A stretch of 64,000 nt of DNA from Escherichia coli (GTDB lineage Bacteria > Pseudomonadota > Gammaproteobacteria > Enterobacterales > Enterobacteriaceae), in the NCBI RefSeq assembly GCF_965641715.1, contig NZ_OZ282453.1. One strand, 5' to 3'. Made by a program: the position numbers and the translations under genes. Below the pieces are notes generated by a model. It saw nothing but the letters and a program-made list of their open reading frames with translations. It had not been told where the DNA came from and did no database searches. Positions 2,485-43,114 of this stretch are shown one piece after another (positions within the stretch are counted from its first letter, which is position 1; the number at the start of each line of letters is the position of its first letter).

Positions 2485-3843
2485 TTATGGTGACTCACAA
2501 AAATTCACCACATCCCTCACAACCACCTTATTACGCCCGGTCTCTTTCGCCTCGTATAGTGCGTTATCAGCCAGTCGATAGATCTCATTCGGGTTTAACG
2601 CATTTTCCTGAGTCACAACAGCGCCAATACTAATCGTCACTTTTTGTGGTATGGCGTATTCAGGATTATCACCAGTTAAACGCTCAACATTTTCCCGAAT
2701 CCTTTCCGCTAAAGCTTTCGCACGTTCAGTATCGATGTCCGTCAGCAAGACGCCAAACTCTTCGCCGCCGACGCGCGCAAAAAGGTCATCTGGCCGTATG
2801 CTTTTCCCAATGATATTCACCACTGTTTTTATCACCTGATCGCCAATCGGATGCCCCCAGGTGTCGTTGACTTTTTTGAAGTGGTCGATATCCATAATCA
2901 TGACGCAATAAGGCGTTTTTTTGGCCGATGCTGATTGAACCGTCAGTTCATTAAAAAAATAATTTCTGTTAAATATATTGGTTAAGGGATCGCGATGTGC
3001 AATGTCCTTTGTTACTCGTAGCGCACTGAATATATGGCACATAAATATTACCATAACGGTTAACTTACTGACTACTTCAATAGTGCGACTAATATACCAA
3101 ATGGACACGCTATACCTGCTCATAAATAAAAGAGAGACATTGTACAGTACGGCACAAAAAGCAATCACTGTCACTCCATTCCAGATATCATAGCGTAAAC
3201 CATTAAAGTATAGATTAACCGAAAGCAAGGTTAACCACATGAAAATCATTATGGTAACATATGAAGCTTTCCAAACCACTTGACCATTTTCATTGGTTAA
3301 CTCGGCAATGTGTAAATCGTAGCTCTCATAATGGCTAGAAAGTATGTGAGCAACTATCGGCCCCCCAAGAACAAAAAACAAACTTATGCACAAAGTCATT
3401 TTTTTGGAAAATAAATTGCGCTGTTTTGTGTTTTCACTAACTTTATTCACCAATGCCAGAAATATTAATATGCACAAACTCATCTGACGAAACAAATAAT
3501 AAATTGCAATGTCATTTTGAACAACACTGCTTGTCAAACGCCCCTCAATCATTTGCTGAATGATAATGACGGTTTTAACAAAGTAAATCAAACAACTCAG
3601 AAAAGCCAAACTAAGTATACAGTTTGAAAATTGCCTACGGTCATAAATGAAATACAACTGCATAAAAATAAATGCAACAGTATCGATAAAAAATAAAGCA
3701 ATCATTACCATCAGATAGGTTGATCGTGGAACAACTTCCTCAACGCCTGGCTGATTAAACCAACTATTCACCAAAACCAAAGCAAGCCCAAACAATAAGC
3801 TCACTAAGACAGTACTACTAATTCTCAAATAGTCTTTTTCCAT
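2485..3843 (-). CDS. dgcT: diguanylate cyclase DgcT (YcdT), multi-TM + GGDEF
   Basis: Translation matches remembered YcdT from MEKDYLRISS. GGEEF active site (RVGGEEFGVLL). Divergent from pgaA. 452 aa from the trimmed start. Confidence 0.92.
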   Translation of the reverse strand: MEKDYLRISSTVLVSLLFGLALVLVNSWFNQPGVEEVVPRSTYLMVMIALFFIDTVAFIFMQLYFIYDRRQFSNCILSLAFLSCLIYFVKTVIIIQQMIEGRLTSSVVQNDIAIYYLFRQMSLCILIFLALVNKVSENTKQRNLFSKKMTLCISLFFVLGGPIVAHILSSHYESYDLHIAELTNENGQVVWKASYVTIMIFMWLTLLSVNLYFNGLRYDIWNGVTVIAFCAVLYNVSLLFMSRYSVSIWYISRTIEVVSKLTVMVIFMCHIFSALRVTKDIAHRDPLTNIFNRNYFFNELTVQSASAKKTPYCVMIMDIDHFKKVNDTWGHPIGDQVIKTVVNIIGKSIRPDDLFARVGGEEFGVLLTDIDTERAKALAERIRENVERLTGDNPEYAIPQKVTISIGAVVTQENALNPNEIYRLADNALYEAKETGRNKVVVRDVVNFCESP

Positions 3844-10664: not shown

Positions 10665-11729
10665 TTAACTGTAGGCATGTAGCGTACGTTGGCAAAGTGC
10701 CGAACGTACGCAATCCTCTTTACCGAACCGGACGATCCCGACCATTTCATCTTCTTCGAAACGTTCCAGCGCGTCACTTAATCCGGAGCACACGCCGCGA
10801 GGCAAATCGCATTGCGTGATATCACCGTTGACGATAACCGTCACGTTCTCCCCGAGGCGGGTTAAAAACATTTTCATTTGCGCGGCAGTCACATTCTGCG
10901 CCTCGTCAAGAATGACGACTGCATTTTCAAAGGTACGTCCACGCATATAGGCGAACGGCGCAATTTCCACCTTCCCTATTTCCGGTCGCAGGCAGTACTG
11001 CATAAAGGAAGCCCCTAAGCGCCGGACCAGCACGTCGTAGACCGGGCGAAAATAGGGAGCAAACTTTTCTGCGATATCTCCAGGTAAGAAGCCAAGATCT
11101 TCATCGGCTTGCAGAACTGGACGGGTGACGATAATCCTGTCGACATCCTTATGTATCAGGGCCTCTGCCGCTTTTGCTGCACTGATCCAGGTTTTTCCGC
11201 ACCCGGCTTCGCCCGTGGCGAATATCAGCTGCTTACTCTCAATAGCCTTCAGATAGTGCAATTGCGCTTCATTTCGCGCGAGGATGGGCGAAGTATCGCG
11301 ACTGTCGCGGGCCATACCAATGGCTTCTACGCCGCTCATCTGCACAAGCGAGGTGACCGATTCTTCTTCACGCTGCTTATGGCTGCGCGAATCCCGTCTC
11401 AGCACACGTTTTGCCTCGCGACGAGCTTTGATCACTGCTTTTTGTCTTCCCATGGAGAGCACCTTGAGTTGTTTGTATTCATCACACGCGCCGTTGGCAG
11501 CGCGATTATGCGCACGAACATCAGAGGGTTGGCTTCCTTGTAAGCCATAGTTTGCTTTTGGATAAAATGCCGAAAAACGGCTACGCGCACCGTTTACGGC
11601 GTCGGTAACACATGAAAAGAAAGGATGAGGTTGAAAATGCAAAGTGACGAGATGACTACCGGAGGAGAAAACTCCGCGAGTGGTGGCGCGTTGATTATCT
11701 AAAACATGTCCAGTACAGGACGTTACCAT
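10665..11729 (-). CDS. phoH: PhoH, ATP-binding Pho-regulon protein
   Basis: 354 aa. Walker A GEAGCGKT. Matches remembered PhoH. Confidence 0.95.
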   Translation of the reverse strand: MVTSCTGHVLDNQRATTRGVFSSGSHLVTLHFQPHPFFSCVTDAVNGARSRFSAFYPKANYGLQGSQPSDVRAHNRAANGACDEYKQLKVLSMGRQKAVIKARREAKRVLRRDSRSHKQREEESVTSLVQMSGVEAIGMARDSRDTSPILARNEAQLHYLKAIESKQLIFATGEAGCGKTWISAAKAAEALIHKDVDRIIVTRPVLQADEDLGFLPGDIAEKFAPYFRPVYDVLVRRLGASFMQYCLRPEIGKVEIAPFAYMRGRTFENAVVILDEAQNVTAAQMKMFLTRLGENVTVIVNGDITQCDLPRGVCSGLSDALERFEEDEMVGIVRFGKEDCVRSALCQRTLHAYS

Positions 11730-30596: not shown

Positions 30597-30963
30597 TACT
30601 GACCTCCGTCTGGGTATAGACATCATATTGCATAGAATTAACGCGGCGTATGGCGGCTGCCATATTTTCGCTACGTGGGACTAAGCTTAGTGAACTGACG
30701 CGGGCAGACCCGCGTTTGGTAATATCCTGCAACAGCTTCTTAGCGAGAATAGATATCATCTCCAATAATTATCTATAAGCCGCTCTTATGATTAAAAAAA
30801 CGCGATGAGATAAAAATGTGTCATTTTGCGACAAAATTGCGTGCTTGTGAAAGTTGTTATAAATCAAATAAGTGGTTGTGAAATTTGCACTCTGAAAAGG
30901 ACGTCTTATCTTTAAATAAGTGGTAGCGAATCGCTACGGAATAGAGATAACACGAGGAGTGGT

Positions 30964-31005
30964 TAGAAATGGCTAAAGTTCTGGTGCTTTTACATAGCTA
31001 AACAC
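30964..31005. other. attL of the wrbA island (proposed crossover GT at 30984-30985)
   Basis: The host-to-island transition is located by comparison with the attR junction. GTGCTTT is shared at 30984-30990 and 42533-42539. Confidence 0.7.
30969..31001 (+). pseudogene. wrbA: orphaned native 5' end of wrbA (MAKVLVLLHS*), severed by island insertion
   Basis: ATGGCTAAAGTTCTGGTGCTTT equals the remembered native wrbA start (MAKVLVLYYS...). The sequence diverges after 30990 and hits TAA at 30999-31001. Confidence 0.85.
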
Positions 31006-31329
31006 GTACATTCAACTACCTGTTAATTACAGGACATAAACAGGTTAGTACCTATTCAATTTAAAGGCATTTCCCCAAGTATCTAAGCAATTCTACACAG
31101 ATTCTATGCAGTATCGGTATAGTCCCTTTTTATCATAACTTATTGAAATATATAAAGAATCTGTGAAGTATCTTTTCAGGGTAAACTGTATCGTGTTAGT
31201 CGTCCCTCTCCAGACACTACATATAGTGCTATATACAGGGTTATATAGCGATGTATAGATGCTTGGTCACCATACGTTACAGTTGCAAGAGATAACAATC
31301 AGCTATGTGAAAGTTAGGAAGTGATGGTT

Positions 31330-31367
31330 ATAGTTGATTCGGTTAGTTCTAGGAATCAACCTCATAG
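31330..31367 (+). repeat. hairpin unit U1 (ATAGTTGATTC...CTCATAG family)
   Basis: Stem GTTGATTC (31333-31340) / GAATCAAC (31353-31360), 12-nt loop, then CTCATAG. Confidence 0.7.
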
Positions 31368-31934
31368 TTACCTTGTCAAATCTTCGTAGTTCCTCTTAAA
31401 AAATCACTTACAGACACCTTAATATCTATACAGATTTCATGTAGAACACGATTAGTGCGTAAAAAAGCTATTATGTTAAAAACGCACTGTATACGTATCA
31501 GTACTGATTTATAAGGGTTTTGTGTATTGGCTGATAAGAGGCTATACAGCACCTTGAGAGCATGTCTTGTAAGTCATTGATACATAAGGTCACAGAAGTT
31601 TGTAGCTGTTACAGAGAAAACTGGATAGGACTTCACAGGACTATAAAATGTTACAGCAATTGATAGGTGAAATCTTCTTGATAGATGCTGTGAAGTGTGA
31701 TGAAGGTTTCTTGAGGTGGAGTTAACAGATGCTATGAAGAAAGTCAATAGATATTTTAAAATTCTGCAAAGGGGGCCACATAGCTGGTGTGACGGGTACT
31801 TAGCAGGTATAGACCTGTGATAGATATTTTCGAAGATTCGGGGAAGATGAGATTCAAAGAGGACTAGTCATTTTTTATAAAAATTTTCAGAGTCTGAAAA
31901 GTTACTGCACAGATTTTGCACAATCCTACCAAGC

Positions 31935-31969
31935 CTCATAGTTGATTCGATTAGAAGCTAATCTCATAG
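31935..31969 (+). repeat. hairpin unit U2
   Basis: CTCATAG-TTGATTC, then stem GATTAG / CTAATC with loop AAG, then (C)TCATAG. Confidence 0.7.
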
Positions 31970-31972
31970 AAA

Positions 31973-32085
31973 GCTCTGTAGCGAGTTTTAACCCCATTTT
32001 TAGGGGTAACCTGTAGGGATGTACCACCCACCTTAAAATAAAGGGGTAAAATCGCTTAGAATGCGTTACAGAGCGTCTGAGAAGC
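31973..32085. repeat. inverted-repeat arm Y (partner 35643-35755)
   Basis: The reverse complement aligns without gaps to 35643-35755. 81 of 113 positions are identical by hand count. Confidence 0.75.
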
Positions 32086-32596
32086 CATATTCACAGATTT
32101 TACTAAAACCTCAGACTTCTAAGTGGTCTTTTTAACAGGAGGGTTCTTTCTCATGTATCACCCTCTCTTCCCGCCAAGTAAGCTACACAGACCTAGAGAA
32201 TATGCCTTCACAGCATCTATATCAGGTCAGATTTAGAGGTCTTGATAGAATCTTCAAAGGTACTTGACAGATAACTATGAAGTTGTTAGGAAGGGGTGTT
32301 TAACGGGGGAAGAGATACGATATAACCCGAAGGGGAGAGTATCATCTTAACAGTGATTGTAAGAGTAAAACTGAAAAGATACTTAACAGAACTACCAAGA
32401 GGGAGCGATAAGACCAGAGGTAGTGACCTGTTAAACAGTTCGTTTCAAAGCTCTTAAGAGTCTGTTAAGTAAGGTCATGTGAACAATCATATCATTTTGT
32501 CAATGCTTTTGTCTTTGACCTAAATCAATAAAATGTATCGTTTGATGTGCTTTTAAACAAAATAGTTAAAAATCTTTTTAGAGGGGCGCTTCGCTT

Positions 32597-33265
32597 GTGT
32601 CACATCCAATAATCCATATCGGTCGTTATCATGGTGGTTCTGATGACTGGCGTACACCGTATCGTCTATTTCATAACCTGCATCGTGAGTATAGCTTCAG
32701 TCTAGATGGCGCTGCAACTGAGCATGACGCATTGTTGCCACGGTTCACCGATGATATAAACCGTCAATCATGGGTTGGTGAACGGGTCTTCGTTAACCCG
32801 CCGTTTAGCATGGCTGAACAGTTCCTCGCAAAAGCCCCTGAAGCTGATGTGTGTGTATGTCTGGTTCCGCACAGGTCAAAGACAACTTACTGGCTTCGGT
32901 GTGTATATACAAACCCCTTCCTGCATGAGATTCGAACATTACACCGAGCGGTTAAATACCTTCCACCAGCAGGAAAGAGAGGTGTTGTAGCGCGTTCACC
33001 ATTTGCAAGCTGTGTTTTGATATACAGGAACACACCCCGTAAACCGAAGGTTGAAATTACCCAGACAATCTATTGTGGCGACACAATGCTTTTACTTGCC
33101 GTGGTTAATAGGGGTGGTTTACGTGGAAGACCTCATATACACGATGCACAGACGCTTGACAGGTTGATTAAAATGCATGACCAAGGGCAATCCGTCAAGA
33201 GTATCGCAGAATCGCTAAGAATGCCTCTAAGCACCACTTACAGGATTGTTCAAAGGTTGAGCTAA
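32597..33265 (+). CDS. phage Dam-family N6-adenine DNA methyltransferase fused to a C-terminal resolvase-type HTH
   Basis: GTG start with GAGGGG 10 nt upstream. DWRTP...FSLDGAA and VFVNPPFS (motif IV) resemble the phage T1/Stx-phage Dam family. The C-terminus GRPHIHDAQTLDRLIKMHDQGQSVKSIAESLRMPLSTTYRIV resembles the Hin/resolvase HTH. Confidence 0.75.
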   Translation: MSHPIIHIGRYHGGSDDWRTPYRLFHNLHREYSFSLDGAATEHDALLPRFTDDINRQSWVGERVFVNPPFSMAEQFLAKAPEADVCVCLVPHRSKTTYWLRCVYTNPFLHEIRTLHRAVKYLPPAGKRGVVARSPFASCVLIYRNTPRKPKVEITQTIYCGDTMLLLAVVNRGGLRGRPHIHDAQTLDRLIKMHDQGQSVKSIAESLRMPLSTTYRIVQRLS

Positions 33266-33266
33266 A

Positions 33267-33296
33267 ATTCTCATATAGAGCACTGATTATGAGAAT
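33267..33296 (+). terminator. 9-bp perfect hairpin directly after the methyltransferase stop
   Basis: ATTCTCATA (33267-33275) / TATGAGAAT (33288-33296), 12-nt loop. No clear T-tract, so its function is uncertain. Confidence 0.35.
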
Positions 33297-33474
33297 GTTA
33301 AAGAGGCGATTTCCCCTTTCTGGGGTTATTCGCTTTTTACTGGAAGGGTTATTTTACAGAGGTTTTTCAAACCCCCTCAATAATAAAAAACGAGCAACAA
33401 ACGAAGAGCGAGAAATAAAATATTGAGACTGGTGAACGGGGTCTGTAAAGATTGTTTAAGAAGTCGGTTTAGGG

Positions 33475-33518
33475 ATTGGTAGATGATTCGGATGAAGCAT
33501 CCTCATAACAATACCAAT
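33475..33518 (+). repeat. hairpin unit U3 (nested stems)
   Basis: Outer stem ATTGGTA / TACCAAT. TGATTCG. Inner stem GGATG-AAG-CATCC, then TCATAA. Confidence 0.65.
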
Positions 33519-33574
33519 TAGAAGGTGGCTCTCCCTTTCTGGGGATATCGCCTTGTATCTTAGTGAGTCCAGGA

Positions 33575-33751
33575 AGTTCTCTGTGAAGGGACTTGTCAGT
33601 CCTTTATATTGGCTAATTACAACTTATTGAAAAATAAGCATTTTTAGAAATCACTGTTAAGGTTACAGAGTTCTCTGTGAAGAGACTCGTCAGCTCTCTA
33701 TATTGGCTAATTACAACTCATTGAAAAATAAGCATTTTTAGAAATTGCTGT
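33575..33751 (+). repeat. two direct 83-bp repeats with 94-bp period
   Basis: 33575-33657 against 33669-33751: 75/83 identical by hand count. Each copy contains CTGTGAAG...CTTGTCAG/CTCGTCAG and the hairpin CTTATT-gaaa-AATAAG (copy A; copy B reads CTCATT). Confidence 0.85.
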
Positions 33752-33871
33752 CAGAGAGGTGAGTACTTGATAGATACAGCTTTCCGGTTCTGTCAAGATA
33801 TTTTTTAATAGATAGCACAAAATGCTAAAGATACCCCTATACCATCACGTACAGGGGGTTTTGAAGGGAGT

Positions 33872-34060
33872 TTAACGGGGTTCTGTGTGGTTATCTGTTC
33901 TGGTCCTGTCCTTGAGGTCAAATGACCATTCACGACCAAACAATCTGAACACGATAAACACCCGAACGATGAAATAGCGGAGCAGAAGACCTGCAATCAG
34001 CCCAACACCTCCACCAGCCCATACATCAGGTGACCCCAGCTCAGGAGGGAGATTTACCAT
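33872..34060 (-). CDS. possible small membrane protein (62 aa from the internal ATG; 74 aa from the first ATG at 34096)
   Basis: Only minus-strand ORF in the island besides int. This patch is visibly more GC-rich than the surrounding non-coding DNA. AGGAA lies upstream of ATG 34060. TM segment GGGVGLIAGLLLRYFIVRVFIVF followed by a basic tail. Confidence 0.35.
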   Translation of the reverse strand: MVNLPPELGSPDVWAGGGVGLIAGLLLRYFIVRVFIVFRLFGREWSFDLKDRTRTDNHTEPR

Positions 34061-34097
34061 TAAATTTCCTGTGTGCAATGCAATACCATGTGACATA

Positions 34098-34153
34098 CAT
34101 AGTTGATTCGGTTAGTTGGGCTTGTACCAACCCCTATCGAATAAACCTCATAG
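34098..34153 (+). repeat. hairpin unit U4 (nested stems)
   Basis: CATAGTTGATTCGGTTAGTT is identical to U1 over 19 nt. Outer stem TTGATTCG / CGAATAAA, inner stem GTTGG / CCAAC, ends in CTCATAG. Confidence 0.7.
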
Positions 34154-34222
34154 CCACGCTTCATATTTCCCCCTCTCTCATAAACCATTATACCACAAAT
34201 GTTACGAAATTGTTAAAAATAC

Positions 34223-34251
34223 TTGACATTAGTCTTTGAAAATGCTAGTAT
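34223..34251 (+). promoter_or_regulatory. island promoter P1 (sigma70-type)
   Basis: TTGACA-17 nt-TAGTAT, preceded by TGTTAAAAAT and followed by TGTATATA. It is a near-copy of P2. A GTTAA-N7-TTAAC palindrome follows at 34261-34277. Confidence 0.65.
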
Positions 34252-34299
34252 TGTATATAAGTTAACAGAGAATTAACAATTATAAGGACTAGCTTATGA

Positions 34300-34857
34300 A
34301 TGAACGACAGAGAATTTAGAGCGATGCTTCAGGCATCGAGACAACGTAACAGATACAACTCCTACAGCTACACAGACACCCCCACCAGCTACGAACTACC
34401 CAAGCTCACCAGAGCAGAACGCAAAGGCCTTGATGAATTAATTCGTAGCATTACGCCACGAGATAGATTTATGCCAACCAGAAAGAGCACGAAGAACACT
34501 ATTAAAAATTATCTGGCTAACTTTGACAGCTACGAACAATTACCAAGTAAGCTTGATGATGTAATTATCGGATTCTGTAGAAGTGAAGGTCACCCGAAAT
34601 ACAACAAAAAACTATTTTATCTTCTAAAGAATCTTGACGAAATTAACTCAGCCACCGTGACAAATCATCTTCAGCGTCAAGCAACCAGACTTAGCCATGA
34701 ATTACCAAGCGATAAATATTGCGCTTTGCTTGCTGTAATGTGCGCAAAGTTAATTGGTGTTGTTGAGCATCATATTGCCGTTGGAAATATTGAGCCAATG
34801 GAAAACGAGCAACCAGATTTCGAGTTTGACCCGTATTTAGTTACAGAGGAATTTTAA
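34300..34857 (+). CDS. hypothetical protein, 185 aa
   Basis: AAGGA upstream. First gene after P1. No family recognised. Confidence 0.65.
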   Translation: MNDREFRAMLQASRQRNRYNSYSYTDTPTSYELPKLTRAERKGLDELIRSITPRDRFMPTRKSTKNTIKNYLANFDSYEQLPSKLDDVIIGFCRSEGHPKYNKKLFYLLKNLDEINSATVTNHLQRQATRLSHELPSDKYCALLAVMCAKLIGVVEHHIAVGNIEPMENEQPDFEFDPYLVTEEF

Positions 34858-35136
34858 ATGAAGAAACACACTTTGACCCGTATTTCAGAAGAAGCCTTTC
34901 ACGAGCTTACCCGAATTAAACAGACAACTAACCTCCCTCATCAAACTGTTATGCAGCTTGCAATTGCTAAAGAGGTTACTGAGTCGGATTTACTGAAATA
35001 TCCAGTCTCTAAAGGTCGTAAGCACATCCGAATTACTCAGGACGCTTTAGATACTTTGAAGGCACTTAACAACTTTAAAATTGATATCGCCCGACTATTG
35101 AGTATTAAGATTCACAAGTTAGCAATGGGGGTTTAA
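34858..35136 (+). CDS. hypothetical protein, 92 aa (possible ribbon-helix-helix DNA binder)
   Basis: ATG abuts the upstream TAA. The N-terminal KKHTLTRISEEAFHEL pattern looks RHH-like (weak). Confidence 0.55.
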   Translation: MKKHTLTRISEEAFHELTRIKQTTNLPHQTVMQLAIAKEVTESDLLKYPVSKGRKHIRITQDALDTLKALNNFKIDIARLLSIKIHKLAMGV

Positions 35137-35351
35137 TGCTATGCGTTACCTTTGAATACCACACGGATAAAATGATTCGCTACATCTCCGACCTCCTGAT
35201 TGAAGGAAACGGATTCGGTGACATCCATAACTCAAAAGATATTTTCATTAAAGCCATTGGCCCAAATGAAGTACTGAAAACAGCAGTTAAACCGGAATGG
35301 TTTGAGCGTCACAAGATTGAATTAGGTTATTGGGGTGAGGAGGTTTTATGA
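35136..35351 (+). CDS. hypothetical protein, 71 aa
   Basis: TAATG overlap with the upstream gene. Confidence 0.55.
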   Translation: MLCVTFEYHTDKMIRYISDLLIEGNGFGDIHNSKDIFIKAIGPNEVLKTAVKPEWFERHKIELGYWGEEVL

Positions 35352-35635
35352 AACCTTGGCATGAAGATGTTAGACGATATTTTACAGAACACCTTATCTA
35401 TGATGAATCCAGTGATTCCCTGTGCTGGTCTGATGGAGAGTCAGTCACGATAAACACCGACGACTACGGCAACAAAACATTTAATATAGGCCGATATACT
35501 TTCTACGTGAAATATGTTGTCTGGTTCCTTTATCATGGCTATCAATCCAACAAGCAAATTATCCATCGAAATGGTAACAGAGCCGATACCAGACCAAAAA
35601 ATCTTATGCAAGTCCGAGACTTTAAGAGAAATTAG
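35348..35635 (+). CDS. small HNH-type endonuclease-like protein, 95 aa
   Basis: ATGA overlap with the upstream gene. YVVWFLYHGY...IHRNGNRADTRPKNL resembles the HNH_3 motif (H-x-N-G-N..DNR..NL). Confidence 0.65.
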   Translation: MKPWHEDVRRYFTEHLIYDESSDSLCWSDGESVTINTDDYGNKTFNIGRYTFYVKYVVWFLYHGYQSNKQIIHRNGNRADTRPKNLMQVRDFKRN

Positions 35636-35642
35636 AAAAACA

Positions 35643-35755
35643 GCTTCTCAGACGCTCTCAATCGCATTCTAACGCAAAAAACTATCTTATTTTAGGGTGG
35701 GTAATACCACTGTACAGGCTACCCCTGAAAAAGACTGTTTAGCTCGTTACAGAGC
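35643..35755. repeat. inverted-repeat arm X (partner 31973-32085)
   Basis: See arm Y. Lies in the 156-bp gap between the HNH gene and the next ORF. Confidence 0.75.
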
Positions 35756-35791
35756 GATTGAGGAGGTCTGGTAAAAAGGAGATTTTAAGAA

Positions 35792-36121
35792 ATGAGAGAA
35801 TTAAACTTCCCACTACAGATTTTTATTGATACCGACACCGCCATGATGATTCAGGCTTTCACTGATGTAGGTGTTAGCATTGACTTTGATAAGTTGTTAG
35901 AGTTAATGACTGATAATGCGGAAAGCATCTCTGACTTTATTCAGTCGGTGGAGTTTAACGAGCCTCGAATGATGCTACCAATTAAAGACAGCAACATGAA
36001 AAGATTGGTTATCGAGCAAACGAACAAATTCAGCGTTAGCCCTGAAAAATATCTCAAGGCGGCTATAGCAATTTTGTACGCTGACAATATTTTGGTGACG
36101 GATTCGAAGGTGGTGCATTAA
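35792..36121 (+). CDS. hypothetical acidic protein, 109 aa
   Basis: AAGGAG lies 8 nt upstream of the ATG. Confidence 0.6.
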   Translation: MRELNFPLQIFIDTDTAMMIQAFTDVGVSIDFDKLLELMTDNAESISDFIQSVEFNEPRMMLPIKDSNMKRLVIEQTNKFSVSPEKYLKAAIAILYADNILVTDSKVVH

Positions 36122-36186
36122 TGGAATTGGTGATTATCTGTTTTGTATTGATTGGTATGATTGCAGGTGCATCTATTAAAGTATAA
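36121..36186 (+). CDS. 21-aa hydrophobic peptide MELVIICFVLIGMIAGASIKV
   Basis: TAATG overlap with the upstream stop (translational coupling). Single TM-like stretch. Below the ORF-track size cutoff. Confidence 0.4.
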   Translation: MELVIICFVLIGMIAGASIKV

Positions 36187-36211
36187 ATGTTACCAATCTG
36201 TTAAAAATCTG

Positions 36212-36240
36212 TTGACAAATAACCTTGAGCATGACATAAT
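36212..36240 (+). promoter_or_regulatory. island promoter P2 (sigma70-type)
   Basis: TTGACA-17 nt-CATAAT, preceded by TGTTAAAAAT and followed by TGTATATA. Confidence 0.65.
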
Positions 36241-36246
36241 TGTATA

Positions 36247-36503
36247 TATATGAGGATAGTCTTCTATCCGAAGTCTATAGGGAGAGCAATTCTCCTTGAA
36301 TTAAAATATTAATCATCTCTACATCAATGATAACTATATTCTGAGTTGGTGAGGTATGTTCTATACCGAACATTCTGAAAGGTGCAATGCTTTTCGTCAT
36401 GGCCTTTCAGTTTAGTCTGAGAGGCTATCTCAAAAAGTGCTTAATCATTCATTCATTGAATCCTTTACAGCTTTGCCCTAATCATGAGTTAGGGCGTTTC
36501 TTT
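36247..36503 (+). ncRNA. putative ~255-nt leader/short RNA from P2 to the first terminator
   Basis: No ORF of 60 aa or more. Hairpins GGATAG-tctt-CTATCC, GGAGA-gcaat-TCTCC and CTGAAAGG (36375-36382) / CCTTTCAG (36403-36410). Ends at an intrinsic terminator. Confidence 0.3.
36475..36503 (+). terminator. intrinsic terminator in the P2 leader
   Basis: GCCCTAA-tcatgag-TTAGGGC followed by GTTTCTTT. Confidence 0.7.
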
Positions 36504-36573
36504 AAGAGTTTTAAGCAGAGCTTTTAAAGAAAGTTTTTCCTGAAACTTCGTTAACGTTATAAAGCAAACCTTC

Positions 36574-36610
36574 AAAGCCCTTCACAGATTCAATGTTTAG
36601 GGCTTTTCTT
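36574..36610 (+). terminator. second hairpin/terminator in the P2 leader
   Basis: AAAGCCCT / AGGGCTTT 8-bp stem. The 17-nt loop contains CTTCACAGATT. Followed by TCTT. Confidence 0.45.
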
Positions 36611-36707
36611 AATAGAGCATCTTTAATAAATCGTTAAGTCATCTTCTAAGTGTATTGGCGTTGAAGGTGCTCTGTTAAGAAATAAACCACACTTAGAGGA
36701 AGTTATA

Positions 36708-37418
36708 ATGACAAACGATTTATATATTAACGGTAAAAAGGTTGATAGCTTCGGTGACTGGTCGCCACAGACTGAACATCCAGCTATCACTATTCAGCGC
36801 AAAGAACACGATGAAAGAATTGCACTTGAGCAAGAAATCCGAATGTCACCAAAGGTAATTTCCTTTGTGGCTCCTGAGCCTCAAGATATGCCGGATATTT
36901 GCAAAACTGAAGCATTGCTTGAGCTTGAAAAGAAATTTTACCCAGCTTTAAAAGCACAGCGTCTTAAACTAGATGACGCTTACAGTAAAGTTACCCTGAT
37001 GCAATCAGCTATTGAGCCATCAGAATTTGAGATTCAGGATGAATTGTCACAGAAACCATTTGTCTATTACCAATATGAAGACAATGATGGTTTTGGTACT
37101 TTTCCTGAGAATATCCCAGACGTGATTAATAATCCGATGGATGGATATCGAATTGTGAAGATGGTTAAGGCATCAAGAGGTGCTGGTCAGTTTATTTACA
37201 TGACTAATAAGAGCGATGAAGAACTCGCTGAACTTGCTAGACAGAACATCTTGGCATCACGTAACAAGCAGCTTGATAATGTTAAGTTGTATCTCTCAAG
37301 AGAGCTTCAGGCTATGAAAGACCTTGTGAAAGAATATGAAGATGCTAAGAAGATTGCTATGCAAGCCGATATTGAGCAGTTAGTGAAGATTTCTAGCAAA
37401 TATGCAAAGGCTATTTAA
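36708..37418 (+). CDS. hypothetical acidic/coiled-coil protein, 236 aa
   Basis: AGAGGAAG upstream. It sits where tail assembly chaperones sit in siphophage gene order, but I saw no sequence motif supporting that role. Confidence 0.6.
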   Translation: MTNDLYINGKKVDSFGDWSPQTEHPAITIQRKEHDERIALEQEIRMSPKVISFVAPEPQDMPDICKTEALLELEKKFYPALKAQRLKLDDAYSKVTLMQSAIEPSEFEIQDELSQKPFVYYQYEDNDGFGTFPENIPDVINNPMDGYRIVKMVKASRGAGQFIYMTNKSDEELAELARQNILASRNKQLDNVKLYLSRELQAMKDLVKEYEDAKKIAMQADIEQLVKISSKYAKAI

Positions 37419-37437
37419 TTATGATGTGAGGTGAAGA

Positions 37438-37653
37438 ATGATTGATTTAACTGAACGCTATGAAGTTATTAAGTCTGTTTGTGAGAACTTAAAGCTTCAG
37501 ACTAAACCAAAGCTACGAATTAAAAATCAGCATCAAGTTATCACCTCACACAAACCAAAGGTTAGAAGGATTCCTTCATGGTGTATTGACCGTGTTCCTG
37601 CTGATGCTCAATTAATTGGTGAGTCTGGTTCTTACACTTATATCCTTCATTAA
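37438..37653 (+). CDS. hypothetical basic protein, 71 aa
   Basis: GAGGTGAAG upstream. Confidence 0.5.
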   Translation: MIDLTERYEVIKSVCENLKLQTKPKLRIKNQHQVITSHKPKVRRIPSWCIDRVPADAQLIGESGSYTYILH

Positions 37654-37660
37654 AAATTAC

Positions 37661-37704
37661 AAAGGGGAGAGATTAGCCTTAATTGGTTAGTCTTTCCCTT
37701 TTTC
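37661..37704 (+). terminator. imperfect hairpin + T-run upstream of the tape-measure gene
   Basis: aaaggggagaga ... tctttccctttttcg, with a bulged stem. Confidence 0.4.
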
Positions 37705-37734
37705 GTATATGAACACTTAAGAGGTGAAACATGA

Positions 37735-39864
37735 ATGGCACAGTTTAAAGTTGATAGTTTTATCGTTGAGCTAGGCTTCAGCGAGAACGTTATTAAGGGC
37801 TTGCAAAGAGTTGAAAAGGCAGCTTTGCAGTCAGCACAAAGAATTGAGCGTAATTTGAATAGAGCGTTTAAGGTCGATACCAAGCAACTTGACAGCAATT
37901 TAACGGCTTCTTTGAAGTCAATGGAAGGAAAAATTAATAAGACCTTTGACCGTCTGGAAGCTAGAGCAAAAAATACTAAAGCTTTCCAGTTTACCACCAG
38001 ATTTAATGACACTGTTAATCCTCCAAAACAACCGAGACAGCCACGAATTAGCGGCAACAGAGCAATCACAGCAGCTTACTCAGCGAATATGAGCAAGTTA
38101 AAGGGCTTTGACCCTATTTTGCAGAAATACATCAAATCTCAGTTTTACGGGCTATCTGCTAAAGCTGGGTCAATGGATAACACCAAGTTTAATGAAGCCC
38201 TTGCTAAACTAAATTCAAGTGTAAGAGAAGCAATTGCTAAAGCTAAAGGTCATACATCCACCAGCATTAACGGTGACAGAGCAGCTAATAGTCTTGATAA
38301 CCTGTCTTCAGCGGCGGTTAAAACAGCAGGTGCATTTATCTCAATGCAGGCTGTATTAGCCAGTTATCAGAAGATTATGGAGGTTGGTTTACAGCGTGCA
38401 AGTGCTGAGCGTTCAATTGATTTCGTATTTGATAAAGATGCAGGTCAGGTAAAAGAGTTCACAAAGTCATTAGCTCAAACAACGGGTTTAGATATCGCTG
38501 AACTGCAATCACAGTTTGCTGGTTTCGGTGCTTCAGCTAAAGAGTCTATGGGTATTCAAGGTTCTGAAGAGCTTTTTAGAAATATGATTGGCTATGCTCG
38601 TTTAATGGGTCGAAGTGAAGAAGAGATTAAGCGAGCACTGACAGCATTATCACAGATGGCTGGTAAGGGTCAGGTTATGGCTGAAGAGCTTAAGGGGCAA
38701 CTAGCTGAAGCTGTTCCTGGTATGGTTCAGGTATTCGCTAAAGCAACCGGAAAGAGTGAACAGGAATTATTTGATGCCATGAAGAAGGGGGCTTTAAAAT
38801 CTGCCGATACTCTTCAGAAGGTCACTCAGGAACTGAATAGACAAATCACCGCTAAAGGTGGCTGGAAAGCTATTTCAGAAAGTACACAGGCACAACTAGG
38901 GAACTTGAAAAACTCTTGGAATACCACGCTTGACAGTATTTTCAGAGGTTCTGAAGATGGTTTACAGGACTTCACAAGAAGCTTAACCAATCTTCTAAAC
39001 GCTCTTGGTGGAACTGGTAAAACATTAGGTGAAAGTTTTGGTAGCTTGATGAGCGATATGTCACATGGTATCGATTCATTGACTGATATCTCTTACAGGG
39101 TACGAGGTTTCTTTGATGAGGTGACATTAGCTTACCGTTCACTAAATGACACTCAGAAAAAAATTGTTGATGGTTTATCTGATGGGTTAATTGATGGTTT
39201 GAAAATGCTTGCCGTAGCTGTTACTGCTCAAAAGGCTGCAAATGTAGCTGGAGGCTTGTTAAACCTTGCAAACGCTGTTACTTCATTCGGTGACGCTGTT
39301 AATAAAGCTAAAGCTGGCAAGGCTGGTTCTTCAGGTGGTGCGCTAAGTAAAGTCGGTAGAGTTGTCCTTTATGCTGAGTTGGTAAACTTTGCTCTTGATA
39401 ATTTAAACCCTGAAGCAGCTAAGAATCCGAACTTACATCAATCAGGTATTGGAACAGAGACAAACTTCAACCCTGAATACAAAGGCGATTCTACACCAAA
39501 CCAAATTAATGATGGATGGGCTAAGATTGGTAGTTCTATCGCTGACTGGTTTAATGGTGCGGCTAATAAAATTGCTAACTTCCAAGAGCCAATGAGTAAC
39601 CTTGTTAATAACACACAATCAACTCCACCAGCTATTACAGGTGACATGGTTAATAGCAATGCTCAACTTGCAATGGCTATTAGTGAACTATCACGTAAGG
39701 TTGATGCTTTAACAGCAGAATCTAAGAAGCCCTTGTCACTTAATATCAAAGGTGAAGCAATTGTTAGACCGGATGAACCAGCTTTCTTTACTTTCAATCA
39801 ATCAGCTAATGACCAGTTCACGCAGGATATGCTCTTAAGTTCAAGCTATCCAGAGGAAGAATGA
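37735..39864 (+). CDS. phage tail tape-measure protein, 709 aa
   Basis: GAGGTG lies 8 nt upstream. LSQMAGKGQVMAEELKGQLAEAVPGMVQVFAKATGKSEQELFDAMKKGALKSADTL matches the conserved tape-measure N-terminal domain pattern. Long Ala/Gly/Ser-rich helical protein. Confidence 0.8.
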   Translation: MAQFKVDSFIVELGFSENVIKGLQRVEKAALQSAQRIERNLNRAFKVDTKQLDSNLTASLKSMEGKINKTFDRLEARAKNTKAFQFTTRFNDTVNPPKQPRQPRISGNRAITAAYSANMSKLKGFDPILQKYIKSQFYGLSAKAGSMDNTKFNEALAKLNSSVREAIAKAKGHTSTSINGDRAANSLDNLSSAAVKTAGAFISMQAVLASYQKIMEVGLQRASAERSIDFVFDKDAGQVKEFTKSLAQTTGLDIAELQSQFAGFGASAKESMGIQGSEELFRNMIGYARLMGRSEEEIKRALTALSQMAGKGQVMAEELKGQLAEAVPGMVQVFAKATGKSEQELFDAMKKGALKSADTLQKVTQELNRQITAKGGWKAISESTQAQLGNLKNSWNTTLDSIFRGSEDGLQDFTRSLTNLLNALGGTGKTLGESFGSLMSDMSHGIDSLTDISYRVRGFFDEVTLAYRSLNDTQKKIVDGLSDGLIDGLKMLAVAVTAQKAANVAGGLLNLANAVTSFGDAVNKAKAGKAGSSGGALSKVGRVVLYAELVNFALDNLNPEAAKNPNLHQSGIGTETNFNPEYKGDSTPNQINDGWAKIGSSIADWFNGAANKIANFQEPMSNLVNNTQSTPPAITGDMVNSNAQLAMAISELSRKVDALTAESKKPLSLNIKGEAIVRPDEPAFFTFNQSANDQFTQDMLLSSSYPEEE

Positions 39865-40020
39865 TTTAACGGTGTTCTACGTGAATAAAGCAAAGTTAAT
39901 ACCCACACCAAAAATTATTTTTCACGTAGCTCACGCTTAACAGAGAAAATACATATATATCAAAGGCTTGGTTAAAAATGATTAAAATACACTAAGCCTT
40001 TGAAATCAAAGGAGAATTTA

Positions 40021-40794
40021 ATGATTTTTAGCAATCAAATCCGCTACAGTGGCAAAGATGGCATCTATTTCCACTTAAGAGATAATGTAGATGCCTTCTT
40101 AACCTTATCAGCAACTGAAAACATGGAATTTGACAGTCCTATGCAGGTGACTACACAGAACATGCAATCAGGGCAAACCGTCACAGATAATGTGCAAAGA
40201 GCACCCAGAACAATCACTATTAGTGGTGTCGTTGTAGTTGGCTATGAAGGAAGCTTATTATTAACTCGTCAGGGTCAATTAGTAGAAAACTTCATTGACA
40301 CTCTTGAAAGCTGGAGAGACCAGAAACAAATTATTTCAGTGATTTGTAAAGATGGTATCAAGATTGATGACTCAATTATTACCAACTTTAAAGCCTCTAA
40401 AGATGTTACTATCTCTAACGGTCTTCGTATCCAGCTAACTTTTCAGGAAATTAACTTCAAAGCCATTGTAGGGCAAACTGATGTTTCAGCAGCTACTGGC
40501 AAAACTGCTACCACTAATGATGGTGGTGCTACCAGTAAAAAGAATGCGGGTAACGTGACTACTGAACGCAATAACGCACCTATGTTGATGTGTCAGGAAC
40601 TGTATAGCTACTCAGCATCTGAGCTATCTGATGAAGCGCTAAGGGTCCGTAGCAATTGCTCTAAAAATGTCACGGTGAAAGATGGTGTAAGCACCTTCAC
40701 AGCCTCAGCTAATGAGCAGGCTTCAAAAGTGCTTAAGTCGGGTAATGCTTTACGGAAGTTTAGTGTGAATCCGAATAAGAAGGGCACTTATTGA
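40021..40794 (+). CDS. putative tail-tip/distal-tail-like protein, 257 aa
   Basis: GGAG lies 6 nt upstream of ATG 40021. Sits directly after the TMP. The assignment rests on position only. Confidence 0.45.
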
Positions 40795-40811
40795 TTGGTA
40801 ACAATACCAAT
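40794..40811. terminator. hairpin between the convergent tail gene and int
   Basis: ATTGGTA-acaa-TACCAAT. These are the same arms as the outer stem of unit U3. Confidence 0.45.
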
Positions 40812-40813
40812 TC

Positions 40814-42457
40814 CTAAGCGTCCACCTCTTCCATATCACCAGCAGGATAAATCCTTGTTACTGGTTCACCAAAAATAAGCATATCATCTAGTGACTGCAT
40901 CTCATCGGTTGCTTCTTCAAGCGTTAAGGTGTGGTCATCTTTACCATCAAGAGGGAAACCACGAATCATATTTCCATTGTGAAGATATATATCCACCAGC
41001 TTTTCATTACCAGAAACAACAATCTCTTTCACCAGACGCTTAATGATAATCTGGGCTTCAGTTCTCCCCTCTACAGACTCCATATCAAGACCGCTTAAAT
41101 CCAAGCTTGATACAGATTTTACCCTCGCCTTTTCTCGTGATAACTGAACTATCAGTTCATCTTTTTCTTCCTGCTTAACCCGTAGTGCTTCCTGAATCTG
41201 AGTGATGTTAGGAAGCTGTATCAGCGTCTCAGTAAGTTTTTCAAGTTCACTATCAACGGTGTTTAGTCTGCGTTGTAGCTCATCCAATTTAGCTGTGTCA
41301 GTAGCTTCATCGTGTAGCTGTGATAGTTTGCTGAACAGACGACTACAAAGCTGTGTATCAAGTAACTTTCTGGACACTGTACCGTAGCTACAACGGGACT
41401 CCTTATTACCATTGCAACGGTAAGTACCTTGATAAACGGGTTTACGTATCCCTGTAGGAGTCATTACAAGCCCACACTTACAACGGATAAGCCCCTTCAG
41501 TATGTTCACATATAGCCAGTGTTCACCGCTGGATGTTTTCCCCTTCCCTGTTTCCTCTAACAGTTGCTGTACAGCGTAAAACTTAGAGTCTGTGACAATC
41601 TGAGGATAGAACCCTTCAATTTCTTCACGTAACACTGTTTTACGGTCTTCTGTAGAAATCTTAGCGGGAAGGTAACCTAATACACTTCGTGAAGTCAGGA
41701 TGTGTTTAACGCTTAATGCTGACCAGTTGCCATCCGGTTTCTTAGTCTTGGATATTCTGACCTTACGCTGATTAATGGTCGGGTAACCTTGTTCGTTTAG
41801 CCATTTACAGATAGCAAACATCGACATACCAGAAAGACGCTTGTCATAGATGATATTCACCAGTGACGCTTTATCTTCATCAACGATGTAGTGTGAACCG
41901 TCTTCTGATAGCTCTAACCATCCGGGGGCTTGCTTACCCATAGGCTTCTTAAGTTCTCTTGCAAGCTGTGTTTTATGGTTCCAGACCTGAGCTATACGCT
42001 TTTGCTTAACAAGAGATTCCTGATGTGCTCTCTCAGCTATGATGATGTGCTTAATCAACTTCACAGGGTCTGTTAATGCTGATTTGTCGTAGAGTTCACC
42101 ATCTCCCAGAGTCAGTATAGAGACTCCTTTCCTCAGTATCTGCCTGACATCATCTATAGCTGTGTCGATATCAGCCCTACTGAAGCGGTCAAAGTTCTCT
42201 ACAACAATCAGGGAACCTTCTGGAATAGCCCCAGACATAACATTTTCAAACATACGTCTGAAGTCAGAACCTTGAGCCTTATGTTGCTGGTGAAAACCAG
42301 ATTTACCCTTATCAACGTATCTGTGAGCAGGAAGAAGGTAATAATCGTTTTTGTGCTTAGAGTAGAAAGCATCAATGAGGTTTGTTTGCCGTCTTAAGGA
42401 GTCTCCTGAGTCTTGCTCTTTAGTACTCCACCTGATGTATGTCACTAGCAGCTTCAT
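40814..42457 (-). CDS. large serine recombinase (integrase), 547 aa
   Basis: N-terminal resolvase catalytic domain ([28 protein letters not shown]). Recombinase domain. Cys-rich zinc ribbon (CKCG...YRCNG...C). Coiled-coil. Terminal position 75 bp from attR. Confidence 0.88.
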
Positions 42458-42508
42458 ATCTTCGGACTATGCTTATCTAAGTGGTTCATTGAACAGGAGA
42501 ACAATGAT

Positions 42509-43114
42509 ATGAGTGTTAAGGCAAGAATACTAGTGCTTTATTATTCCATGTACGGACATATTGAAACGATGGCACGCGCAGTCGCTGAGGGTGCAAGCAA
42601 AGTGGATGGCGCTGAAGTTGTCGTTAAGCGTGTACCGGAAACCATGCCGCCGCAATTATTTGAAAAAGCAGGCGGTAAAACGCAAACTGCACCGGTTGCA
42701 ACCCCACAAGAACTGGCCGATTACGACGCCATTATTTTTGGTACACCTACCCGCTTTGGCAACATGTCCGGTCAAATGCGTACCTTCCTCGACCAGACGG
42801 GCGGCCTGTGGGCTTCCGGCGCACTATACGGAAAACTGGCGAGCGTCTTTAGTTCCACCGGTACTGGCGGCGGTCAGGAACAAACCATCACATCCACCTG
42901 GACGACCCTTGCGCATCACGGCATGGTGATTGTCCCCATTGGCTACGCAGCGCAGGAATTATTTGACGTTTCACAGGTTCGCGGCGGTACGCCGTACGGC
43001 GCAACCACCATCGCAGGCGGTGACGGCTCACGCCAGCCAAGCCAGGAAGAACTGTCTATTGCTCGTTATCAAGGGGAATATGTCGCAGGTCTGGCAGTTA
43101 AACTTAACGGCTAA
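42509..43114 (+). CDS. wrbA: NAD(P)H:quinone oxidoreductase WrbA, hybrid allele with an island-encoded N-terminus
   Basis: 201 aa. [17 protein letters not shown]... against remembered native [14 protein letters not shown].... AGGAG at 42495-42499. The remainder matches WrbA. Confidence 0.92.
42513..42554. other. attR of the wrbA island (proposed crossover GT at 42533-42534)
   Basis: Island-to-wrbA transition. See attL. Confidence 0.7.

Follow-up and report, generated by a model that had tools for sequence, protein, structure and literature searches.

How can several short hairpins keep their flanks and their pairing constant if the sequence of the paired arms differs from copy to copy? This question is raised by four units, U1 to U4, which lie close to each other in a 64,000-nucleotide (nt) stretch of the Escherichia coli contig NZ_OZ282453.1 (assembly GCF_965641715.1), here called the window, and which belong to the largely non-coding part of an integrated island. 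The original prediction, made from the letters of this DNA, took them for a selected RNA or cruciform structure such as a small RNA (sRNA) or terminator family, protein-binding hairpins, or packaging or recombination signals. We consider it moderately probable that U1-U4 are a family of miniature non-coding, non-autonomous hairpin cassettes that behave as mobile insertions, and we describe the helix, the filled and empty sites, the islands and phages that carry the units and, finally, the alternatives.

Constant flanks and a compensated helix

The four-unit observation is real and non-random. A search of the window with the motif GATTCG-N{8,38}-CTCATA gave four matches at 31336, 31944, 33485 and 34105, all on the plus strand and within 3 kb, with an actual spacing between the flanks of 11-35 nt. 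The expectation for the combined motif is 0.23 per 64 kb, and 0 of 100 shuffled sequences reached four matches. This search bore out the positions, the strand and the common flanks of the predicted units. The 19 identical nt shared by U1 and U4 were confirmed by a repeat finder, and the AAG loop in both U2 and U3 holds as well. In their redefined form the four cassettes are:

31334..31367, plus strand: U1 cassette, TTGATTC-GGTT A GTTC TAG GAAT C AACC-TCATAG, 34 nt, located 3' of TATAG at site A
31942..31969, plus strand: U2 cassette, TTGATTC-GATTAG AAG CTAATC-TCATAG, 28 nt, located at site H
33482..33507, plus strand: U3 cassette, GATGATTC-GGATG AAG CATCC-TCATA, 26 nt
34103..34153, plus strand: U4 cassette, TTGATTC-GGTT(..)TAT CGA ATAAACC-TCATAG, 51 nt, located 3' of ACATAG at site C

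Copies of the units were gathered from 19 island loci and about 15 Ounavirinae phage loci, which are named by their L numbers where they have to be told apart. The redefined unit consists of 5'-(TT)GATTC, a Watson-Crick helix, a small loop, the second arm of the helix and TCATA(G)-3', with the helix located directly inside the flanks, and has a length of 26-51 bp in the window and 24-51 bp in the relatives. The flanks are invariant and the helix comprises 4-7 bp of perfect Watson-Crick pairs, which are sometimes extended. At least seven helix classes exist, and those seen are GGTT/AACC (U1 and U4), GGATG/CATCC (U3), GATTAG/CTAATC (U2), GATAG/CTATC, GGTAG/CTACC, GGTTTAT/ATAAACC and AGGTAA/TTACCT. 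The own arms of a unit pair over 4-7 bp in 17 of the 19 variants, whereas arms from different classes pair over at most 3 bp. The two exceptions are L031 with 2 bp, which is a mismatch intermediate, and the copy at position 2600 of phage Moogle with 0 bp, which is offset by one mismatched pair.

That pairing is kept despite sequence change is supported in a real alignment of 11 short variants with 5 paired positions, corresponding to 55 cells. All 55 cells are Watson-Crick pairs, double changes occur at 5 of 5 pairs and 18 cells are compensatory. None of 500 shuffles equalled the pairing of this alignment, and sliding the partner by 1-3 columns left only 31-56% of the cells paired. In addition, the variants include a stepwise series of GGTT/AACC (U1), GGAT/AACC with a mismatch (L031, L033) and GGAT/ATCC (L023), and the change most likely ran in this direction. 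As there is no G-U pair in the 55 aligned cells and triloops are found in most units, a DNA-level hairpin fits better than an RNA, which is only suggestive of a structure that acts as DNA.

With respect to the stems, the predicted arms of U2 and U3 could be retained, but those of U1 (GTTGATTC/GAATCAAC) and U4 (TTGATTCG/CGAATAAA) turned out to be minimum-free-energy folds and not the compensated helix. This alternative fold of U1 and U4 is possible because GAATC is the reverse complement of the flank GATTC. It is mutually exclusive with the conserved flank-adjacent helix and lies beyond the covariation test, since the invariant flank serves as its 5' arm. GATTC in the 5' flank and GAATC, which often closes the loop, both correspond to GANTC, a HinfI/CcrM-type site.

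Filled and empty insertion sites

Alignments of the islands revealed presence and absence of the units at orthologous positions with exact junctions for sites A, B, C, D, E and H. A caret marks the junction of an empty site and parentheses enclose the inserted sequence:

31334..31367, plus strand: site A, empty ATAG^TTACC in L026 and L021; filled with U1, ATAG(TTGATTCGG..CCTCATAG)TTACC, in the window, L024, L030 and L033
31385..31389, plus strand: site B, 22 nt to the right of site A, empty CGTAG^TCCC, vacant in the window as CGTAG^TTCC; filled with a U1-type cassette in L021 and a hybrid cassette in L027
34103..34153, plus strand: site C, empty ACATAG^CCACG or TCTCATAG^CCACG, with ACATAG^CCACG vacant in L001, L023, L021 and L026; filled with the 51-nt U4 in the window, L025, L027 and L030, and with a 30-nt short form in L022 and L032 (in L022 GATTCGGTTTATCGAATAAACCTCATA)
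31745..31750, plus strand: site D, CAATAG^ATATTTTAAAA, vacant in the window; U4-type cassette in L033 only
31817..31823, plus strand: site E, GTGATAG^ATATTTTCGAAG, vacant in the window; GGTAG-AAT-CTACC cassette in L033 only, which reads GCAG(TTGATTCGGTAGAATCTACCTCATAG)ATATTTTCG at the place of GCAG^ATATTTTCG in L022, L027 and L031
31942..31969, plus strand: site H, filled with U2 in the window and L001; empty CTCATAG^AAAGC in L024, with ATCATAG in L028 and L029 and TTCATAG in L037
31936..31941, plus strand: pre-existing TCATAG target of U2 at site H, as seen from the empty sites in relatives

At these six sites the cassette is placed 3' of a YAG (usually TAG, ATAG or CATAG) that the empty site already contains, the sequence downstream continues unaltered, and the cassette itself ends with CATAG. 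There is no target duplication of fixed length, and sites B and E retain the original target as their left flank. The identity between the left flank and the 3' end of the cassette varies from 1 to 7 nt (G, TA, AG, TAG, ATAG, CATAG, CTCATAG). The empty sites (C/A/T)TCATAG^AAAGC also changed the left boundary of U2: the unit as such was recovered, but the CTCATAG just 5' of it, which had been counted as part of the unit, is the pre-existing target. One and the same variant can be found at several sites, as the U1-type at A, B and G and the U4-type at C and D, and identical variants are present in phages and in islands, with the GGTAG-AAT-CTACC variant being common to islands and phage Moogle.

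Overall, at least 10 sites are occupied, on both strands. The arrangement on one strand is therefore true for the window but not a general trait of the related islands. Minus-strand copies are located between the gene for a 71-aa protein and the tape-measure gene (L032, L033, L037), between the gene for a 102-109-aa protein and that for a 235/236-aa protein (L023, L034, L035), and at the left island end (L023, L031). The units at sites F and G and at position 7115 of L023 are antisense to the island operon.

The favoured landing places are the loops of other hairpins, which can be a phage terminator, a palindrome or another unit. In the window this applies to the following features:

33475..33518, plus strand: palindrome ATTGGTA..ACAATACCAAT, whose loop holds U3; the composite is wholly absent in L001 and L023
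40794..40811, plus strand: uninterrupted copy of the palindrome that hosts U3, ATTGGTAACAATACCAAT, flanked by the Dit-like gene and the convergent recombinase gene
34114..34134, plus strand: hairpin AGTTGGGCTTGTACCAACCCC, 21 nt, nested in U4 and lacking in the L022 short form

The palindrome ATTGGTA^ACAATACCAAT is interrupted by U3, and its intact form is found in the same island and at 3279-3296 of phage locus L002. The recurrence of the outer stem ATTGGTA/TACCAAT at 40794-40811, with 0.01 occurrences expected, had been noted before and could be reproduced, here without an insert. U4 corresponds to the L022 short form plus the nested 21-nt hairpin, and this sub-module also occurs in a U1-like background (L027, L043) and in an E'-type background. 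In phage Moogle one unit lies within the loop of another unit. The phage unit GATTCGATAGAATCTATCTCATA occupies the loop of the intrinsic terminator AGCCCC..GGGGCTTTTT, which also exists unit-free. The terminator at the right border lacks a unit in H12, BPSELC-1, HY02, Moogle and ESh22 and has one in mio and SUSP2; at the left border, the terminators of Moogle and ESh22 contain a unit and that of EC106 does not. A filled terminator was found in about 44 of about 285 Ounavirinae records (~15%). An identical 23-nt unit is present in the terminator loops of Mooglevirus, Suspvirus and Felixounavirus, with surrounding DNA that is only ~74-85% identical.

Islands and phage termini carrying the units

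The units are confined to two settings, the terminal non-coding region of Ounavirinae and an Escherichia/Salmonella island family with Ounavirinae-like tail genes. A structured scan for the flanks together with a flank-adjacent stem of at least 4 bp gave 36 matches in 19 island loci and none in the 52.3 kb of window chromosome outside the island. The U1-type cassette was detected in 108 of 5426 E. coli genomes, at 1-2 places each; no annotated gene is located under any of the matches listed, and these copies presumably lie within islands. A pattern scan of 185,579 species, each represented by one genome, yielded 28 matches. Within the Escherichia group only E. albertii matched, and its match alone carries a known unit variant; of the remaining 27, 22 show no stem other than the GG/CC that the search pattern imposes. 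Scans of IMG/VR added only three further island copies and one phage copy. Using Rfam 15 at the gathering threshold, no family matched at the units in the whole window; the only matches, all elsewhere, are Ysr251 (190.9 bits, 10670-10863), naRNA4/REP (82.5 bits, 47721-47799) and the cspA thermoregulator (161.3 bits, 58482-58904), and they mark the window as chromosome of Escherichia type. At E<=5, the region 30900-34400 gave only a chance mir-194 match off the units.

In the phages, the units are associated with the genome ends. A stretch in the Felixounavirus phages NBEco004, NBEco005 and EC106 matches U3 and its outer stem at 94-98% identity; it is located within a non-coding region of ~1.7 kb between convergent gene blocks, and the complete EC106 genome contains the motif only twice, both times in the non-coding region. 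The Felixounavirus Bas63/JohannRWettstein also carries a unit. The genome termini lie in the ~1.7-kb region: L002 ~3684/3685 is where the ends of the PhageTerm-opened H12 record fall, which places one terminus, and direct terminal repeats of 608 bp have been mapped experimentally in UAB_Phi87 (PMC4837284), whose record does not start at the physical end. The palindrome at L002 3279-3296 is located inside the inferred terminal repeat. A second motif is common to island and phages:

31750..31775, minus strand: shared site CCCCCTTTGCAGAATTTTAAAATATC, 26 nt, context and not a unit, 92-100% identical to L002 3097-3122, L004-L008 and L010

This 26-nt sequence, CCCCCTTTGCA(A/G)AATTTTAAAATATC, is kept at 92-100% between the island and Felixounavirus/Mooglevirus. 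In the phage it is situated ~20-45 bp inside the inferred boundary of the terminal repeat, and it is a candidate signal for packaging or the terminus that island and phage would have in common. Short repeated words on both strands crowd the island at 31000-32600 (CTGTGAAG, TTAACAG, TTACAG) and the phage at L002 2455-4191 (CTTAACAG, CTAACAAG), which may be iterated protein-binding sites.

The island itself covers ~30995-42500 (11.5 kb) and is inserted in the 5' end of wrbA. It encodes a Dam-HTH protein, a run of small open reading frames (ORFs) without family assignment, an HNH endonuclease (35348-35635), a tape-measure protein, a Dit-like protein and a large serine recombinase, and has neither capsid nor terminase genes nor any recognisable replication gene. 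Most of 31000-34300 does not code for proteins, the exceptions being the Dam-HTH gene (32597-33265, plus strand) and a small membrane ORF on the minus strand, and ~2.5 kb of the non-coding island DNA resembles the phage terminal region. Only two of these proteins have homologues in a Felixounavirus genome, the tape-measure protein at 30% and the Dit-like protein at 75% identity, and their genes are adjacent there too. Related islands of 11-12 kb are present in 539 of 5426 complete E. coli genomes (~10%), at a median of two places per genome, and are inserted at wrbA, next to yciI or in yecE; they are also found in Salmonella, E. fergusonii and E. albertii. The large serine recombinase, the two tail proteins related to Felixounavirus and the helper-like terminal motifs would fit a satellite, and in these sequence features the island resembles a satellite or parasite, so far undescribed, of virulent Felix O1-like phages. 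An identity with SpLE2 of O157 Sakai was rejected, as SpLE2 is a CP4-44-like element.

The cargo of the non-coding part varies in the relatives and includes the Dam-HTH gene, an HNH-AP2 protein, a small serine recombinase and ORFs of unknown function. The Dam-HTH slot appears as a hotspot of variable cargo (L025 3508-4032, L030 2916-3440, L034 2112-2636) and can hold, in place of Dam-HTH or next to it, the gene for a 174-aa HNH-AP2 protein, which PGAP names 'AP2/ERF transcription factor'. The Dam-HTH protein had no matches in GTDB genomes or IMG/VR, a 185-aa island protein has more than 1000 homologue clusters, all of them unnamed, and PGAP in some genomes calls the 236-aa protein a 'transposase', a label without support from any family.

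Further features were noted in the vicinity of U3 and U4 and at the right end of the island. Two tandem direct repeats of 94 nt (33575-33751), which are 90% identical over 83 nt and also present in related islands, each hold a weak minus-strand promoter-like match and the motif TCTCTGTGAAG. Strong divergent sigma-70-like promoters are located in 34187-34251 and 33872-34060, with TTGACA-17-TAGTAT on the plus strand and TTAACA-18-TATAAT with an extended TG on the minus strand. Transcription from the minus-strand promoter would cross the U4 complement into a 62-aa hydrophobic ORF, so that the leader would be ~51 nt longer than in islands with an empty site. The first 12 residues of wrbA (42509-43114) appear unlike the usual WrbA start, which we take to be MAKVLVLYY. 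If the start differs, the insertion of the island would give wrbA a new 5' end and keep the ORF open.

Alternative explanations and comparison with known systems

If the units are mobile cassettes, a cassette would be copied or moved as single-stranded DNA, and a trans-acting factor would read flanks and hairpin by a logic as in IS200/IS605 or REP-RAYT. The helix would then be conserved as a recognition structure, and the cassettes would probably be selfish or neutral passengers placed where they do little harm. Among the functions suggested at the outset, recombination signals come closest to the data, since the whole unit is inserted or deleted at exact junctions. As a tentative extension it is conceivable that an undescribed single-stranded DNA insertion system, active during infection by virulent Felix O1-like phages, shuttles the 24-51 bp hairpins between phage termini and a satellite family, namely the serine-recombinase islands, which would copy the terminal non-coding DNA of the helper and two of its tail genes. 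Several points weigh against mobility. No transposase, HUH nuclease or other candidate enzyme was found by NCBIfam, Pfam, PHROGs and PDB sequence searches, which covered the island ORFs only, and no Felixounavirus homologue of the island HNH endonuclease was found. The copy number of the U1-type cassette in the 108 genomes is low, and the junction identity of 1-7 nt fits microhomology-mediated template switching as well as enzymatic targeting. Moreover, deletion between flanking ATAG repeats could yield some of the 'empty' sites, and the identical 23-nt unit in the terminator loops of three phage genera could reflect a function.

Such a function is the core of a more doubtful explanation, in which the units are functional cis-acting phage and island structures spread by modular recombination and not by transposition. 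They might serve as a protein-binding DNA or RNA hairpin, a stabiliser of transcript 3' ends, a terminator enhancer or, close to the terminal repeats, an accessory signal for packaging or replication. Invariant flanks and a compensated helix imply a reader, the 23-nt unit has remained identical despite its diverged surroundings, the phage border units are sense to the convergent genes and lie a few hundred bp from the mapped genome terminus (L002 ~3684/3685), and other short motifs of the phage terminus are common to the island. However, each unit is dispensable in some relatives, the terminator unit is present in only ~15% of the Ounavirinae records, and island units are found on both strands, some of them antisense to the operon. 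The specific RNA or packaging functions suggested earlier fared poorly. A terminator family is not supported, given the lack of a T-run or terminator call at U1-U4 and the unit-free terminators in phages. For an sRNA family there is neither an Rfam match nor a G-U pair in the 55 cells, both strands are used and antisense copies occur; the triloops are typical of DNA hairpins. An essential packaging signal is not supported either, as every unit is missing from some otherwise homologous islands or phages. There is also no consistent promoter at the units, and their orientation relative to genes is inconsistent; TTGATT as a -35 promoter element was rejected and the promoter reading was dropped, because the flank spacing varies over 11-35 nt and no promoter is called at the units.

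It seems unlikely that the units were spread passively by microhomology-mediated template switching or illegitimate recombination, comparable to PeSL-like shuffling, without machinery or function and with a hairpin that merely promotes polymerase pausing. In favour of this, the left flank and the cassette 3' end always have 1-7 nt in common, as copy-choice predicts, the cassettes recombine, with the 21-nt sub-module in U4-, U1- and E'-type backgrounds, and the neighbouring DNA is a recombinogenic mosaic of short repeats. On the other hand, template switching leaves unexplained why an invariant TTGATTC stands beside seven diverged helix classes and why pairing is restored after single changes, and no such movement is seen for unrelated sequence that lies between other ATAG repeats. 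A chance resemblance in AT-rich non-coding DNA could only appeal to the half-motifs, which taken singly occur at chance frequency in the window. This reading is excluded by the motif enrichment (4 instead of 0.23 expected), by the structured scan with dozens of compensated copies in relatives, compared with none in the 52 kb of chromosome that flank the island, and by the covariation; the flank matches in other phyla are mostly stemless (22/27).

Mobile cassettes thus remain the explanation that we prefer. If this is true, the units would be among the smallest mobile DNA elements described, with an unusual habitat in the terminal non-coding region of strictly virulent typing and biocontrol phages (Felix O1 relatives) and in islands mimicking this region. 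They would also mark, at the level of sequence, the exchange of DNA between a virulent phage and its candidate satellite, and a flanked hairpin oligonucleotide would be a simple bait for the mobilising enzyme. Our literature searches found no description of the units, the island family or a Felixounavirus satellite, and a more novel lead than the units themselves is that the island may be a satellite of virulent Felix O1-like phages. As the island family is common (539/5426), it may influence the success of Felixounavirus-based phage therapy or biocontrol.

Several known systems share single traits with the units. A miniature inverted-repeat transposable element (MITE) was rejected. Its ends would have to form inverted repeats, unlike TTGATTC and TCATAG, and instead of a target duplication of fixed length the junctions share anything from 1 to 7 nt, of which the left copy represents the original target. 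Group IIC introns insert beside hairpins such as terminators. The preference for hairpins as landing places is alike, but these introns are kilobase-sized ribozymes that encode their own enzyme. Integron attC sites resemble the units in that a self-complementary centre of variable sequence lies between conserved ends, and they act in the form of a folded single strand; in contrast to the units, their R'' and R' are complementary and an integrase is needed, whereas GATTC and TCATA are not complementary and the island recombinases are of the serine type only, with no IntI. The PeSLs of T4-type phages (PMC2839356, PMC4122927) are likewise short conserved stem-loop motifs in intergenic DNA that mark boundaries of insertion, deletion or replacement, but they hold an early promoter and bracket ORFs, whereas the units have no sigma-70-like call and neither ORF nor cargo.

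The greatest similarity is found with two systems that act on hairpins. REP/BIME elements mobilised by RAYT (TnpA_REP) are very short extragenic palindromes with a conserved sequence beside the stem and variable compensated arms. They differ in being GC-rich, with a 5' GTAG and hundreds of chromosomal copies, often in inverted pairs, whereas the units are AT-rich, conserved on both sides of the stem and present in 0-5 copies per island or phage, with none in the flanking chromosome. An assignment to REP/RAYT was rejected on these grounds, i.e. the AT-rich sequence, the 1-2 places per genome of the U1-type and the absence from 52.3 kb. IS200/IS605 elements and PATEs differ by a size of hundreds of bp with a hairpin at each end, compared to one hairpin in 24-51 bp, and no Y1 HUH transposase was found in the island, the units being confined to phage termini and one island family. 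What they have in common with the units is insertion 3' of a short specific sequence without target duplication, precise empty sites, a hairpin beside conserved short single-stranded sequences and an implied single-stranded DNA intermediate. By analogy, the logic of a mobile hairpin cassette as proposed here would be closest to that of IS200/IS605-PATE and REP-RAYT.

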